From the sequence record PQ850615.1: a stretch of 42,712 bases of DNA. One strand, given 5' to 3'. The stretch is from Escherichia phage LotteLoewe_Bas71. The notes below the pieces were generated by a model, which saw only the letters and a list, made by a program, of their open reading frames with translations, did not search any database and was not told the DNA's origin. The position numbers and the translations under genes are program-made. Positions 3,341-39,601 of this stretch are shown one piece after another (the first letter of the stretch is position 1; each line of letters opens with the position of its first letter).

Positions 3341-4417
3341 ATGCTATTAACTTTAGCGCCACAGGGTTTATCTATGAGCTTACTTACATCCCTAATCAGC
3401 CATCAGATATGGCTGCAACGCACCGCATCCGGTGAGGTGAAAGACCTCACGCCGTTCATTCAGGAGATAAGGGATGAAATCAAACGGCAGGTGCTGTTAT
3501 TCGGTGACGACGGTCGCAGCACTGCGCGACTGAATAAACTGTTACGCGACCTGGAAGAAGCACTAACCGGTATTACGGGTGACTGGCAAACAAAGCTAAC
3601 AGACGACCTTAAGGAACTGGCGGCGTACGAGGCTGAGTGGAACGTAAAGACACTGACCGCCAACGTAGACGCGGAATTTGTTACGCCTACCGCTGAGCAG
3701 GTATGGGCCGCTGCCGAGTTTCAACCATTATCATTGAGCGACAAGCCCGTTGATTTCACCAAGCTGATGGACGGCTGGGGTGAAACGGAAGTAGCACGTC
3801 TTGTAACTGGAGTTAAGATGGGCTTTGTGCAAGGTCAAACCACACGGCAGATTGTTAAGAATGTTGTTGGCGCTGGTGGACTAGCCGACATCTCAGAACG
3901 TAACGCGACTACGGTAATCCGCACCGCGCTGTCCCACGTATCCAACGAGGCCCGTAACGAGACGTACCGCCAGAACGACGACATCATCGAGAAGTACGAG
4001 TGGGTGTCAACGCTTGACAGCCGCACCAGTACGATTTGCAGGGTCAGAGACGGGATGACGTGGGAAATTGGTAAGGGGCCGATGCCCCCAGCCCATCCGA
4101 ACTGCCGGTCGTGCACGGCTCCGGTAATCAGTTCCGAGTTCGACTTCCTCGATAAAGGCGCAAAACGCGCGGCTAAAGGCGCGGAAGGTGGCACTCAGGT
4201 AAGCGCAGACACCACTTACTACGAGTTCCTTAAACAACAACCGGCGTGGTTTCAGGACCAGGCGCTCGGCCCGGTGCGAGGTAAGATTTTCCGTAACAGC
4301 GGTATATCGCCGGAAGAGTTTCGCGTAATATCTGTAGATGGTTTCGGGAATCCGCTCACGCTTAAGCAGATGGCGGAACTCGATAAACGTGTTGCTGATT
4401 ATCTGAAAGGGGAATAA
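3341..4417 (+). CDS. head morphogenesis / minor capsid protein (SPP1 gp7 / Mu F-like)
   Basis: 358 aa ORF following portal, the conserved position of the gp7/F-like head morphogenesis gene. Confidence 0.5.
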   Translation: MLLTLAPQGLSMSLLTSLISHQIWLQRTASGEVKDLTPFIQEIRDEIKRQVLLFGDDGRSTARLNKLLRDLEEALTGITGDWQTKLTDDLKELAAYEAEWNVKTLTANVDAEFVTPTAEQVWAAAEFQPLSLSDKPVDFTKLMDGWGETEVARLVTGVKMGFVQGQTTRQIVKNVVGAGGLADISERNATTVIRTALSHVSNEARNETYRQNDDIIEKYEWVSTLDSRTSTICRVRDGMTWEIGKGPMPPAHPNCRSCTAPVISSEFDFLDKGAKRAAKGAEGGTQVSADTTYYEFLKQQPAWFQDQALGPVRGKIFRNSGISPEEFRVISVDGFGNPLTLKQMAELDKRVADYLKGE

Positions 4418-7868: not shown

Positions 7869-8057
7869 GTGGTAACTGGCGGTCTGGAGCCGTATTCCTA
7901 CCAGTGGTACAAAGATAACAACGCCATCGACGGAGCCACCGCAGCTACCTATGCGAAGGCGTCCACTACTACCGCAGATTCAGGCACGTATAAAGTGGTT
8001 GTTCACGATGTGTATGGTAATATTATCTCCAGCAGCACCGTAGCAACTGTGTCTTAA
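7869..8057 (+). CDS. Ig-like domain ORF lacking initiation signals (possible recoded C-terminal extension of the capsid protein)
   Basis: Ig-like signature (YSYQWYKDNNAIDGATAATY...GTYKVVVHDVYGN); GTG start without SD; frame is open from 7770, overlapping the capsid gene 3' end in the -1 frame. Confidence 0.4.
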   Translation: MVTGGLEPYSYQWYKDNNAIDGATAATYAKASTTTADSGTYKVVVHDVYGNIISSSTVATVS

Positions 8058-8791: not shown

Positions 8792-9406
8792 ATGGCGAAG
8801 ACTAAATCAGAGATATTCACGCTAATCGGTTCAGAGCTACCGGACAACACGACCGGACTTATTACGCCTGCGAAGTTGCGCGGGGTATTAACCCAGATGG
8901 CTGACTCACCTATTTACGCCACTCCGGGTGTTAAAGAGGTTGAAGTTCTCCGCGCTGCGTCGACAGTAGCGCAAGCGCCTACCGCGGTAGATACAGCATT
9001 GCAGTTAACTTTCGGCGCTGCGCAGGGTAGTGCATCCGACCCGGTAATGATTAATGCCGCTGGCCTGGTTACATTTAACACCGCTGGCAACTACGCCGTT
9101 CGCATCAAGTTACAGGCGGGGCGCACAGGGGCCAGCGGCACGTCCATCCTGTTATCGCGCATTCTTCTTAACGGAGCTCAATACGGCTCACCAGCTGCCA
9201 CGAAACTGGTAAGCGCCGATGTAACAATCCCGATTGAATCCCGCGTCGTTATTAACCCAGCCGCAGGCCAGACGTTTGCCGTTCAGATTATGCGGGATAG
9301 CGTCGGAACTAACTTCGGTGGTGTATACCCGCAAGTAGCTACCGTAACCGCATGGGGTACAGCACCATCCGCGCTACTGGTTATCTCGAGACTGGAGGCC
9401 GCGTAA
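8792..9406 (+). CDS. hypothetical structural protein
   Basis: 204 aa ORF within the head-tail joining gene block; coupled to neighbours. Confidence 0.4.
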   Translation: MAKTKSEIFTLIGSELPDNTTGLITPAKLRGVLTQMADSPIYATPGVKEVEVLRAASTVAQAPTAVDTALQLTFGAAQGSASDPVMINAAGLVTFNTAGNYAVRIKLQAGRTGASGTSILLSRILLNGAQYGSPAATKLVSADVTIPIESRVVINPAAGQTFAVQIMRDSVGTNFGGVYPQVATVTAWGTAPSALLVISRLEAA

Positions 9407-9515
9407 TGGAGGTTAAAAAACGCCTAGTAATAAAACGTAGTTACGGTTATAAGAAGCGGTTGTCTGATGCAAGTAAGGAATTAGCCAACATTCTTTCGAC
9501 CAAGAGAGGGTTAGA

Positions 9516-9875
9516 ATGAGCACCGCTTTCAGTAAACGTATGCAAGGCGTAGGCACACGCCTGCTAACCAAGTTCGGCAGCACGGTATCTCTGGTTCGCG
9601 CTGGCTCGAAAGTGTGGGATGAAGTTCTCGGTGAATACGTCTGGTCTGCGGATGAAGTGTTGCCGTTGAAGGCTGTTCCGGTTCCGGTAAACGCGGGACT
9701 GGTAAACGGTACGACGATTCAGGCTGGCGACATGATTGTTAAAGCGGATTGCAGCGTCGTTCCGAAGATGGAAGACAAAGTGCAATTCGGTGGCGAGCAG
9801 TGGTCTGTCGTAGCCATTGAGAAGAAGATGGTTAACGATGATGTCGTGGCATACTTTATTCAGGTGAGAAAATGA
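9516..9875 (+). CDS. hypothetical head-tail joining protein
   Basis: 119 aa, GAGAGGG SD; overlaps next gene (ATGA). Confidence 0.4.
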   Translation: MSTAFSKRMQGVGTRLLTKFGSTVSLVRAGSKVWDEVLGEYVWSADEVLPLKAVPVPVNAGLVNGTTIQAGDMIVKADCSVVPKMEDKVQFGGEQWSVVAIEKKMVNDDVVAYFIQVRK

Positions 9876-37035: not shown

Positions 37036-37224
37036 ATGGGTAAGTGGATTAAGTGTAGTGAGCGGATGCCGGGTGACTTTGAAGATGTCCTGGTTTCGGA
37101 TGGTAGGTCTGTAGAAGTTATGTACCTCAGATTCGGCCTCTGGTACGTAACATCCCCGGATTCTGCTATTTGTGGGGATGAGGTTACACACTGGATGCCG
37201 CTACCAGAGCCGCCGGAAGTGTGA
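37036..37224 (+). CDS. hypothetical early protein (62 aa)
   Basis: ORF with AAGGGG SD; followed by terminator 37266..37296. Confidence 0.4.
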   Translation: MGKWIKCSERMPGDFEDVLVSDGRSVEVMYLRFGLWYVTSPDSAICGDEVTHWMPLPEPPEV

Positions 37225-37265
37225 TGTTATATTGTAACAATAGTTTGGGATTTTACTGAGTGACT

Positions 37266-37296
37266 TACGCTGCTACACAGCAGCGTATCATTTTTC
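37266..37296 (+). terminator. intrinsic terminator after first early operon
   Basis: TACGCTGCT-ACAC-AGCAGCGTA followed by TCATTTTTCTC. Confidence 0.55.
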
Positions 37297-37380
37297 TCAT
37301 TTTTGTTCTATTTCACCAAACGCAACAATCGAAGCGGCTATTGCAGGAGATGCAACAATACAAACACCAATAAAATTTAC

Positions 37381-37409
37381 TTGCACACTAATATAGAATA
37401 GGCTACTAT
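37381..37409 (+). promoter_or_regulatory. early promoter, class A (TTGCAC-N17-TACTAT)
   Basis: Same architecture and core (TAGAATAGGCTACTATTCA) as 36188; follows terminator 37266..37296. Confidence 0.55.
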
Positions 37410-37440
37410 TCATTTACACAAACGAGAGGAGAGACGGAAG

Positions 37441-37590
37441 ATGGTTACTTTGATGATTATGGAATTCGAAAACAGCGCCGCAACTTATCGCGAGATGACT
37501 ATGGCGCAGGCGTACCGCCTGGCCTCGAACGGCAACTTCTACAAGGCGCAAATCATCAATGAGTTCGGGGTAATTGACTATGAATTTTAG
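37441..37590 (+). CDS. hypothetical early protein (49 aa)
   Basis: First ORF after promoter 37381..37409; 22-bp leader CGAGAGGAGAGACGGAAGATGG. Confidence 0.4.
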   Translation: MVTLMIMEFENSAATYREMTMAQAYRLASNGNFYKAQIINEFGVIDYEF

Positions 37591-37852
37591 CAGCTACACC
37601 GTGACCGTTGATTTTGAGGGGCTGGAGTTGCCCCTCCCAAACAACTATCGGTATATAACTCGCGATAGTAATGGGTTTATTCAGGGGTGGCGGAACAAAC
37701 CGACAGACACTGAGTTCGGGATGTCGGGTGGGGAAGAGTTGCCAATCACGTTCGGACATCAGAGCAGCAATGAAGAGCTTAAAACGGTGATTCGTAAGTA
37801 TCGCCGACGCGGCAACACGGGGCTTATCGCAATAACAGGCGCTGTTGAATAG
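37580..37852 (+). CDS. hypothetical early protein (90 aa)
   Basis: ORF overlapping the upstream gene; ATG 37580 (alternative TTG 37574). Confidence 0.4.
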   Translation: MNFSSYTVTVDFEGLELPLPNNYRYITRDSNGFIQGWRNKPTDTEFGMSGGEELPITFGHQSSNEELKTVIRKYRRRGNTGLIAITGAVE

Positions 37853-37871
37853 GCGAGAGGAGAGACGGAAG

Positions 37872-38009
37872 ATGGGCGGGTACGGTAGCTGGACTTTAGG
37901 CGAACTGGTAGATGCTTACGAAATAATGGGCAGCACTTCGGTGTGCAACGGAGACACTAAATCGCTTCTAGTCGGGGCGGATGAGAAAAGGGGTGAAGCT
38001 GATGAGTAG
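37872..38009 (+). CDS. hypothetical early protein (45 aa)
   Basis: Preceded by an exact second copy of the 22-bp leader/start element (37854..37875). Confidence 0.35.
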   Translation: MGGYGSWTLGELVDAYEIMGSTSVCNGDTKSLLVGADEKRGEADE

Positions 38010-38700
38010 CAAAAACGAAGTATTCGAGTACCTGATTGACCAGTTACGGCAGCACGTAAATAACCACCCATACAAGCAACAGTGCGAAGACCTGGCACAT
38101 GAGGTGCTGTCACTTAAGAATCAGTTACGTGATGCGTCGGCGCTGGTGGCTGAGTTACAGGAAGACAACATTAAGAAATCTGAGCACATATCGCACCTGT
38201 CGGAACTGGTGGACGAGTTGATGGGGACTATAACGTTAATGAACGGGGACGTTGAGGCTCACAAAGTTCTACGCAAATGTGCGTGCGCCTATGGGCAATC
38301 CGGTTGTCGCGACGACGCCGCTCATATCGAGAAATCGTGGATTGAGCACGCTGGCGCCGCATGCCCTGTACCGGACGATACTGTTGTTGATATTAAATTC
38401 CGAAACAGCAAAATGGAAAGTAATACCAAAGCGCTATGGTGGAGTTGGGGCCTAAATGGCGGACCATACGAAATTGTTGCGTACCGTGTTGCCGCGCAAC
38501 AATGCAATAAGGACGATACTCGTGAGTGCGCGCATGATTGGGTGCTGGACGAAAAAGGGGACTACTTCATTTGCGCTAAATGCGGTAAGCAAGAAGCTGA
38601 ATTAATTGATTGCCGACACACTAATACCGTTGGTTTGCGTAAGGGTTTTGCGCCGGGGTTTACTAAAAAGTGTCTGGATTGCGGGGCTAAACTGAAATGA
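38002..38700 (+). CDS. hypothetical Cys-rich protein (232 aa)
   Basis: N-terminal predicted coiled coil, C-terminal CxxC pairs (CAKCGKQ ... CLDCGAK); start refined to ATG 38002. Confidence 0.45.
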   Translation: MSSKNEVFEYLIDQLRQHVNNHPYKQQCEDLAHEVLSLKNQLRDASALVAELQEDNIKKSEHISHLSELVDELMGTITLMNGDVEAHKVLRKCACAYGQSGCRDDAAHIEKSWIEHAGAACPVPDDTVVDIKFRNSKMESNTKALWWSWGLNGGPYEIVAYRVAAQQCNKDDTRECAHDWVLDEKGDYFICAKCGKQEAELIDCRHTNTVGLRKGFAPGFTKKCLDCGAKLK

Positions 38701-38900
38701 CCAGCATCTTATTTATTTGGGTATTGTCCGCTGGCCAGATGCAACTGGCGGCAGCAGAAACGTTTTATTCGATGGAGGCGTGCCAGTCAGCGGCACGCGC
38801 CGCAGAGAACGCGCACTTTCTGTTTCAGGGCGACAAGCCCAACGATTCAGAGGTACGCGCTATCTGCTCACCTAAGCGACTTGGTAAACAGGAGAGATAA
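38697..38900 (+). CDS. hypothetical small protein with hydrophobic N-terminus (67 aa)
   Basis: Signal-peptide-like N-terminus (ILFIWVLSAGQMQLAAA). Confidence 0.4.
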   Translation: MTSILFIWVLSAGQMQLAAAETFYSMEACQSAARAAENAHFLFQGDKPNDSEVRAICSPKRLGKQER

Positions 38901-38901
38901 C

Positions 38902-39087
38902 ATGGTACAGAGATACGATGTATGGTGCATAGAAGATATTTTTAAGAATAGCCACGACGGTAGCTATGTTAAATACGAAGACTACGCGAAACTCGAAGCC
39001 GAGTTGCAGAAATACAAGGACCAGTTCCCGGATTACGTCGAGTGCGCGAACTGTGGGTCAGTTACACATGTGGGAGGGGTGGAGTAA
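38902..39087 (+). CDS. hypothetical protein, paralog A (61 aa)
   Basis: Starts MVQRYDVW; GGAGAG SD; C-terminal CANCGS. Confidence 0.45.
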   Translation: MVQRYDVWCIEDIFKNSHDGSYVKYEDYAKLEAELQKYKDQFPDYVECANCGSVTHVGGVE

Positions 39088-39281
39088 TGGTACAGAGATA
39101 TGAGGTAAAAGCGTGGGGCCTGCCAGAGCCTGAGATGGCTGAGTACGCATACGGCGATTATGTAGAGTACGACGCTTATCTGAAACTTGAAGCAAAGTTA
39201 CGTGAATTCGCTAAGCAGGTGCTAGATAGCCCGTGTGACTGGAAGACAAATGAATTAGCGCGCGAGATTCTTGGAATATGA
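39087..39281 (+). CDS. hypothetical protein, paralog B (64 aa)
   Basis: Starts MVQRYEVK; shares N-terminus and YxxLEAxL core with paralog A; TAATG overlap. Confidence 0.45.
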   Translation: MVQRYEVKAWGLPEPEMAEYAYGDYVEYDAYLKLEAKLREFAKQVLDSPCDWKTNELAREILGI

Positions 39282-39571
39282 GCCTTGCAACTGACATCCT
39301 GAAACGAAGCGGCCTTGCGCCGCTGTCACCGAGAGCGAAGACACGAATATACAAGCGCCGCCGTAATGCGCTGTACCCTGAGATTCAGGCCAGACGCAAA
39401 GCAGTCCGCGCCTGCGGATTCCAGAACGGAAAGGCCGTGAATCTAGGAGAGTTTAAAACACAGGAACGCGCGGCAATCGCTAATCGGTTATTTAATTACT
39501 GGAAATCGCTCGGATACGATGATATTCCATCGAAACCGCAGAGACGACAATACATCTGGCGTCATAAATAA
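39278..39571 (+). CDS. hypothetical basic protein (97 aa)
   Basis: ATGA-coupled ORF; arginine/lysine-rich. Confidence 0.4.
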   Translation: MSLATDILKRSGLAPLSPRAKTRIYKRRRNALYPEIQARRKAVRACGFQNGKAVNLGEFKTQERAAIANRLFNYWKSLGYDDIPSKPQRRQYIWRHK

Positions 39572-39601
39572 ACCGTTATTAAGATAATTCCTAACCGTGC
39601 T

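Follow-up and report, generated by a model that had tools for sequence, protein, structure and literature searches.

The tandem MVQRY genes of Escherichia phage LotteLoewe_Bas71, probable anciently diverged members of a modular family of small acidic proteins

Introduction

Two small genes that follow each other directly in Escherichia phage LotteLoewe_Bas71, here called A and B, both encode proteins that start with the residues MVQRY, which raises the questions of how the pair arose, how old it is and what its products could do for the phage. An earlier note on this DNA had regarded the two genes as a recent tandem duplication in an early region, of the sort typical of fast-evolving host-interaction genes. 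Here the pair was analysed within the whole stretch of DNA at hand (42,712 nt, PQ850615.1), referred to as the window, and by comparison with related phage loci.

Results

Location and neighbourhood of the pair

A 1-kb region around the pair was matched by 255 phage records, of which the best was Escherichia phage Bas72 (95.8%), followed by other Kagunavirus (Guernseyvirinae) E. coli siphophages and by Salmonella Jerseyvirus phages. Both ORFs are annotated as 'hypothetical proteins' in Bas72 and Schulenburg, and in these two phages the plus-strand block of small genes that includes the pair sits directly upstream of two holin genes and the gene of a P22-type endolysin. The main elements of the locus are as follows, in positions of the window:

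37225-37440: highly conserved intergenic region with a terminator-like hairpin (37266-37287) and a T-run
38697..38900, plus strand: upstream neighbour and left anchor of the cassette; 67 aa, phrog_3766 (unknown function), conserved
38890-38895, plus strand: RBS AGGAGA preceding gene A, part of the conserved upstream context of position 1
38898-38900, plus strand: TAA stop of the conserved upstream gene, within the 38890..38901 context
38902..39087, plus strand: gene A, stop included; 61 aa, pI 4.65, net charge -6
39087..39281, plus strand: gene B, stop included; 64 aa, pI 4.55, net charge -5
39278..39571, plus strand: downstream neighbour and right anchor of the cassette; 97 aa, phrog_9632 (unknown function), conserved

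The genes are tightly packed. The TAA stop of A shares one base with the ATG of B (TAATG), and the stop of B is overlapped by the ATG of the downstream neighbour (ATGA), after which the holins and the endolysin come. The first family gene is preceded by the context TAAGCGACTTGGTAAACAGGAGA.. in the 27 related loci from which the start context was extracted, and the second by the conserved end of an A-type tail, inside which its RBS is located. Starts of family genes are called differently in some deposited genomes: Schulenburg_069 (L002 2845-3084) was called from an upstream GTG as a protein of 79 aa, not from the conserved MVQRY ATG.

The intergenic region at 37225-37440 probably starts the transcription unit that holds the MVQRY pair and the lysis cassette. 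From its hairpin to the end of the endolysin gene no terminator-like site was predicted, thus the pair appears to be co-transcribed with the holins and the endolysin. A weak promoter-like site (TTGCAC-17-TACTAT), judged by eye, was also noted in this intergenic region. In the annotation of vB_Eco_K1B4, which has the sole Kagunavirus transcriptome, no gene was called at 9000-9632, the presumed equivalent stretch (PMC12645636, Table S2), and therefore the MVQRY family is missing from that RNA-seq analysis.

Such an arrangement could mean that A and B are accessory regulators of lysis or late functions, which we regard as quite unlikely. An operon apparently shared with the lysis genes, in the same orientation, with tight coupling and free of terminator-like sites from 37.3 kb onwards, speaks for this role, as does a distant homologue (P0186) that takes the corresponding place ahead of the lysis genes in a different 43-kb phage. 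However, a second distant homologue (P0195, L046/L047 5001-5162), from a larger phage, lies far from any lysis genes, between primase/helicase and a 7-deazaguanine (QueC/QueD/QueE/FolE-like) DNA-modification cluster, and A and B have neither a transmembrane segment nor similarity to known lysis regulators. In addition, the second copy appears to be dispensable, as described below.

When compared with related loci, the 36.8-40.8 kb part of the window consists of conserved islands that alternate with variable cassettes. The pair lies in a mosaic accessory block of the phage genome, and its assignment to an early region in the earlier note is a supposition. One variable cassette (37440-37990), found in only 7 of 30 related loci, is opened by a small DUF7170 gene (37441-37590, plus strand; Pfam E=3e-18). 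In ON548432 (SCS92) and OK539620 (NTEC3) the region equivalent to 38700-39600 is about 650 bp longer and has an annotated homing endonuclease gene. Homing could promote local gene conversion and mosaicism of the kind observed at this locus.

Sequence relationship between A and B

The 14-mer ATGGTACAGAGATA was present exactly twice in the 42.7-kb window, both times at a gene start; with up to two mismatches, 0.06 matches would be expected there by chance. A single further match, with two mismatches, at 7904, was considered as a third family member but reads VVQR* and was dismissed as a chance occurrence.

At the protein level, A and B were aligned by BLASTP with 19 identities over 47 positions (40%, E=5e-8), and their Smith-Waterman score was 76, compared with 24.8 ± 4.8 for shuffled sequences, none of which reached 76 in 5000 trials. 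After removal of MVQRY the score was still 64 (24.1 ± 4.9 in shuffles, 0 of 5000 reaching it), and therefore the likeness extends beyond the first five codons. Among all six-frame ORFs of the window A and B were each other's only significant match (E about 1e-4), and no third copy was found. These results confirmed that the genes are tandem paralogues with identical starts, and that they have a similar YxxLEAxL core, as had been noticed before; this core reads YAKLEAEL in A and YLKLEAKL in B.

Age of the split and selection

Over the aligned codons A and B have 60.6% nucleotide identity, and 7 of their 19 identical residues are written with different codons. The Nei-Gojobori pS between both genes was 0.58 overall and reached 0.91, that is, saturation, in the shared core, which argues for an old split. 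Selection (dN/dS) was estimated as pN/pS. Among orthologues of B (n=9) the value was 0.20 overall, with 0.14 in the loop, 0.02 in the core (at a pS of 0.39) and 0.36 in the tail, and the tail of A gave 0.10 over 26 sequences. Such low values among orthologues indicate that A and B are real, constrained protein-coding genes, the split of which is, judged from these substitution patterns, ancient.

A mechanism of diversity by point mutation in the loops was also considered and rejected, as the loops are discrete conserved types with a pN/pS of 0.14. Since the loops are under purifying selection within each type, an arms-race reading would rest only on presence or absence of the genes and on swapping of their parts.

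Copy number and distribution

With a family profile, 42 IMG/VR loci were fetched and all their ORFs scanned; with the window counted in, 31 loci were Kagunavirus-like. Two family genes in the order and place seen in the window were found in 15 of the 31, and a single gene in the other 16. The phage database contained 100 records with an A-type gene (78 Escherichia, 14 Salmonella, 4 given just as Kagunavirus, 2 Raoultella, 1 Klebsiella and 1 Shigella), against 37 with a B-type gene. The A-type tail was conserved in 26 of 30 related loci, and the B-type tail in 11-13 of 30. Bas72 has both genes and encodes an identical B, and Bas75, which seems to have A but no B, encodes a 98% identical A. As B is missing in more than half of the relatives, with the region present in 255 records and A-type genes in 100, we infer that genes of both types are dispensable.

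The distribution of the pair also bears on its age. The tandem position, the identical 14-nt start, loops and tails that are very different between both genes and the mosaic nature of the block would all be in keeping with a tandem duplication of recent date, followed by rapid divergence of two host-interaction genes under positive selection. Such an origin is nonetheless very improbable: the low synonymous divergence of a recent duplicate was looked for and pS was 0.58, or 0.91 in the core, and the same arrangement of A and B is found in those 15 of 31 loci. Instead of fast evolution, every segment gave a pN/pS below 0.4 (0.02-0.36), as under purifying selection, and variety apparently comes from module exchange. 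Furthermore, orthologues of each copy are 83-100% identical in many phages, where the order is kept, and the differences between the genes are whole-module replacements that are found elsewhere in other combinations.

Modular build of the genes

Gene A consists of the MVQRY head, a loop of type N66 and an A-type tail (T50), and gene B of the same head, a loop of type N30 and a B-type tail (T68). Their parts are the following:

38902..38915, plus strand: 5' joint of A, ATGGTACAGAGATA (MVQRY), putative left breakpoint of module exchange
38917..38958, plus strand: variable loop of A, DVWCIEDIFKNSHD, with an unrelated loop in its place in Bas72
38959..39006, plus strand: conserved core of A, GSYVKYEDYAKLEAEL, putative middle recombination joint and start of the helix
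39007..39084, plus strand: A-type tail, QKYKDQFPDYVECANCGSVTHVGGVE, with a single CxxC knuckle
39067..39089, plus strand: 3' joint, CATGTGGGAGGGGTGGAGTAATG, comprising the end of A, the RBS of B and TAATG
39087..39100, plus strand: 5' joint of B, ATGGTACAGAGATA, the same 14-mer as at the start of A
39102..39152, plus strand: variable loop of B, EVKAWGLPEPEMAEYAY, the segment with pN/pS 0.14
39153..39200, plus strand: conserved core of B, GDYVEYDAYLKLEAKL, the segment with pN/pS 0.02
39201..39278, plus strand: B-type tail, REFAKQVLDSPCDWKTNELAREILGI, predicted to form a helix-turn-helix-like hairpin with the core helix

The core motif of the family appears as GSYVKYEDYAKLEA in A and as GDYVEYDAYLKLEA in B, in which an alanine takes the place of the aspartate of the motif. 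A has one CxxC and B a single Cys without any CxxC. The A-type tail weakly resembles the second knuckle in the Zn module of the upstream gene (E=0.036). A zinc site made by the CxxC of A and a Cys of the loop was considered but is speculative, being inconsistent across the family, given that many loops paired with an A-type tail have no Cys.

Module exchange at conserved joints

Recombination was inferred from combinations of modules and from breakpoints. Homologues are built from the MVQRY start, a variable loop, the G.YV.YEDYAKLEAE core and one of several alternative tails, some of them with coiled-coil inserts besides. Around gene A the window hardly differs from Bas72 apart from the loop, which has been replaced precisely: identity ends right after ATGGTACAGAGATA and resumes at GAAGCCGAGTT in the core. 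Two homologues (P0023 and P0049) have the loop of B, identical, joined to the tail of A, and a third (P0057) has a related WG..EMAKYAY loop joined to this same tail; conversely, another loop with the tail of B forms a single gene in position 1 in L039 and P0129. In L038 the genes of positions 1 and 2 are fused in frame, in L041 a foreign tail has been recombined onto the 3' joint (HVEGVE/RBS), and in L003 and P0001 the reading frame continues into a CxH..CxxC zinc module. Such chimeras and fusions, together with the loop swap of Bas72, place the breakpoints in the conserved joints.

Clustering of 267 parsed members yielded 85 loop clusters and 94 tail clusters, and in 151 cases all four combinations of two loops with two tails exist. 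The loop of A was found with six tail types (five besides its own) and that of B with seven. From these comparisons, we interpret the pair as two slots in a system of recombining cassettes that has three short conserved joints.

The coincidence of breakpoints with the conserved start and core might instead indicate that these stretches are signals at the nucleotide level, for recombination or translation, and that the ORFs do not encode functional proteins. In favour of such signals, the 14-nt start is identical in both genes despite saturation elsewhere and holds an AGA, a rare codon in E. coli. But the codons for MVQRY vary synonymously within the Kagunavirus set (GTA/GTG, AGA/AGG, TAC/TAT), the residues are kept by distant homologues in unrelated phages and the core has a pN/pS of 0.02, so this explanation is hardly credible.

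A wider family with the MVQRY head

The conserved head comprises around 40 residues, with M-V-Q/K-R-Y followed by a loop of about 10-22 residues and by [D/E]-G-x-[Y/W]-V-x-Y-x-D-Y-x-x-L-E-A. Across 44 diverse members R4 was invariant and Y5 conserved in at least 90%. Both A and B have the N-terminal MVQRY strand and, after the loop, the core motif followed by a predicted helix. The A1 profile scores A with 1.4e-34 and B with 3e-29, values that are not independent because both sequences are in the profile; independent evidence for the membership of B comes from its match to A (E=5e-8) and from the P0023/P0049 chimeras.

A profile search of 1.84 billion representatives returned 176 proteins at E<=1e-3, mostly matched over positions 1 to about 40, and a head-only profile found at least 735 clusters, which come from diverse phages, among 5.8 billion proteins, all unnamed or 'hypothetical'; the only name for the family in these clusters was 'hypothetical protein'. 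Behind the heads, tails included DUF551, an '..IIAYRVV' domain, Zn modules and long coiled coils, and some chains carry two heads. A matched phrog_29624 (unknown function) from end to end (E=1.2e-28), and distant members matched its N-terminal 40 positions or so, whereas B matched it weakly (E=0.057) and had a match to phrog_37174 (E=0.004); these matches show that PHROGs apparently splits one modular family.

Scans of A and B against Pfam, NCBIfam and PADLOC gave nothing significant, and the Pfam Ead/Ea22-like model was not matched by A, B or distant members at E<=1. No description of the MVQRY-head family was found in the literature on Kagunavirus/Guernseyvirinae, Lar-like restriction alleviation and BASEL.

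Two further genes of the window resemble parts of family proteins. A free-standing DUF551 gene lies at 37036-37224 (plus strand; Pfam E=4e-15), and in P0189, from another phage, a DUF551-like domain below the Pfam threshold follows an MVQRY head, a hint that heads and tails occur as genes of their own as well. The gene upstream at 37981-38700 (plus strand), encoding 239 aa, is organised in the same head and tail manner as the MVQRY proteins: roughly 50 residues at its N-terminus (38000-38140) are conserved in 25-30 of 30 related loci and the remainder (38150-38690) is almost unique to the window, with a tail that contains an '..IVAYRV' domain and a CxH..CxxC zinc module, both of which are fused to MVQRY heads elsewhere.

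Predicted structure and charge

The AF2 model of B, built from a 44-sequence alignment, had a mean pLDDT of 86 and contained strands at residues 5-9 and 16-19 and helices at 28-47 and 52-62. B is thus predicted to fold as a beta-hairpin plus two helices, with the head hairpin packed against the start of the helix. For A the alignment was shallow and the model poor (pLDDT 54), with just one helix (25-41) of low confidence. A sequence-profile search of the PDB gave a best E of 0.19, which is noise, and Foldseek of the B model against PDB and BFVD retrieved only B's own orthologue. Acidity is a property of the family as a whole, with a median pI of 4.48 and a median net charge of -7 over 265 members.

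Discussion

The above results make it probable that A and B are anciently diverged paralogues of a large modular family of small acidic proteins. The idea of a recently duplicated, fast-evolving early gene gives way, on the sequence evidence, to that of ancient paralogues in a recombining modular family. According to this explanation, one or two family genes would hold a fixed slot of Kagunavirus between two conserved genes, upstream of the lysis cassette. Homologous recombination would take place at three joints, namely the MVQRY start, the YEDYAKLEAE core and the HVEGVE/RBS/ATG junction, and would reassort loops and tails, make or remove the second copy and fuse copies. The architecture and the evolutionary steps are demonstrated by the comparison of sequences.

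Regarding function, we tentatively propose that the products could be dispensable acidic adaptors or inhibitors that bind other proteins. They would be dispensable cytoplasmic accessory proteins, whose expression is probably tied to the lysis-proximal operon through translational coupling. A scaffold for folding or oligomerisation would be provided by the conserved head and helix, and the host or phage protein to be bound or inhibited would be determined by the exchangeable loop and tail. Being acidic, the proteins would suit a role as decoys or inhibitors of a protein that binds nucleic acids, for instance in anti-defence or in host take-over. A more speculative extension, to which we give only a small probability, is that the MVQRY head is a widespread 'plug-and-play' scaffold, in which the hairpin-helix presents an exchangeable loop and the coiled coil carries exchangeable effector tails, such as Zn modules, DUF551 or the IIAYRVV domain; in-frame reshuffling and tandem homo- or heterodimers would then generate a combinatorial repertoire of inhibitors against targets in host defence or take-over.

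If the architecture holds, the family is a compact and well-sampled case of in-frame module shuffling in phage accessory proteins, with hundreds of natural chimeras of known breakpoints. Its head of around 40 residues, which is present in at least 735 clusters and for which Pfam has no entry, would deserve to be defined as a domain. With respect to annotation, the analysis merges a family split by PHROGs and puts right wrongly called starts and overlooked genes of Kagunavirus genomes in the databases, and for phage engineering the pair marks a dispensable, recombination-tolerant slot in Kagunavirus, a small chassis for synthetic biology. The biological pay-off hinges on the binding partner; otherwise the account is descriptive.

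Comparison with known systems

One comparison is with the Lar protein of the Rac prophage (phrog_3592/PF14354), which would make A and B Lar-like restriction-alleviation (anti-restriction) proteins. Proteins of the Lar family are expected to have two Cys knuckles. A and several distant members match the N-terminal part of phrog_3592 (E 1e-3 to 4e-6), A has one CxxC knuckle and the family is acidic, like many anti-restriction proteins. However, the shared part is the head and the coiled coil, and the zinc ribbon that defines Lar is absent from A and B, the former having one CxxC and the latter none. The Pfam model Lar_restr_allev (PF14354) scored A with 13.3 bits (E=0.1) against a cut-off of 28.6 and left B unmatched. 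Moreover, the Kagunavirus isolates reported to be highly sensitive to RM systems include Bas72, with its identical B, and Bas75, with its 98% identical A (PMC11990801). An anti-restriction role of this type is thus as unlikely as the regulation of lysis discussed above.

A second comparison is with gp5.9 of T7, the RecBCD inhibitor. If A and B were acidic coiled-coil DNA mimics of this kind, they would block RecBCD or another nuclease or defence sensor. With gp5.9 they have in common that they are small, acidic (pI around 4.5) and helix-rich accessory proteins, with a helix after a short N-terminal beta segment. In the 239-aa neighbour, head residues 38-61 are identical to the coiled coil of gp5.9 at 14 of 24 positions (pairwise E=1e-5), and this protein gave E=0.038 with phrog_9014, a likeness that suggests that the block may hold functions directed at host nucleases. 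Yet hhalign of the MVQRY family with gp5.9 gave a probability of 1.2%, so there is no detectable homology, and phrog_9014 was matched by neither A nor B, all of which makes the DNA-mimic explanation unlikely, though less so than the Lar-like one.

A further likeness was found with Pseudomonas aeruginosa prophage proteins (MSxVKRLNFTVSQFE..HGQYVRYADYAKLEAEAQALREE..), which have the G.YV.Y.DYAKLEAE core in common with the MVQRY family, with a coiled coil and variable tails behind it. They differ in their N-terminus, which has no MVQRY strand, and in their length of 160-230 aa, and the likeness is confined to about 30 residues, with E values of 1e-5 to 1e-7 obtained against the fetched loci only. 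In loci L027-L037 and L042-L044 (around 4001-4100) these are mosaic proteins with HGQYVRYADYAKLEAEAQALREE and many alternative C-terminal tails. They may represent a modular family of temperate Pseudomonas phages that is related to the MVQRY one.

Finally, phage accessory genes are known to be shuffled via short boundary sequences, such as the 'linker' sequences of lambdoid phages and the PeSL cassettes of T4-type phages. There, as in the MVQRY family, variable cassettes have short conserved flanks that hold the breakpoints. In contrast to those systems, two of the three joints of the MVQRY family lie inside coding sequence and encode structural residues, and therefore exchange produces in-frame protein chimeras instead of whole-gene swaps. 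The pair is an example of known phage mosaicism, not a new kind of system.
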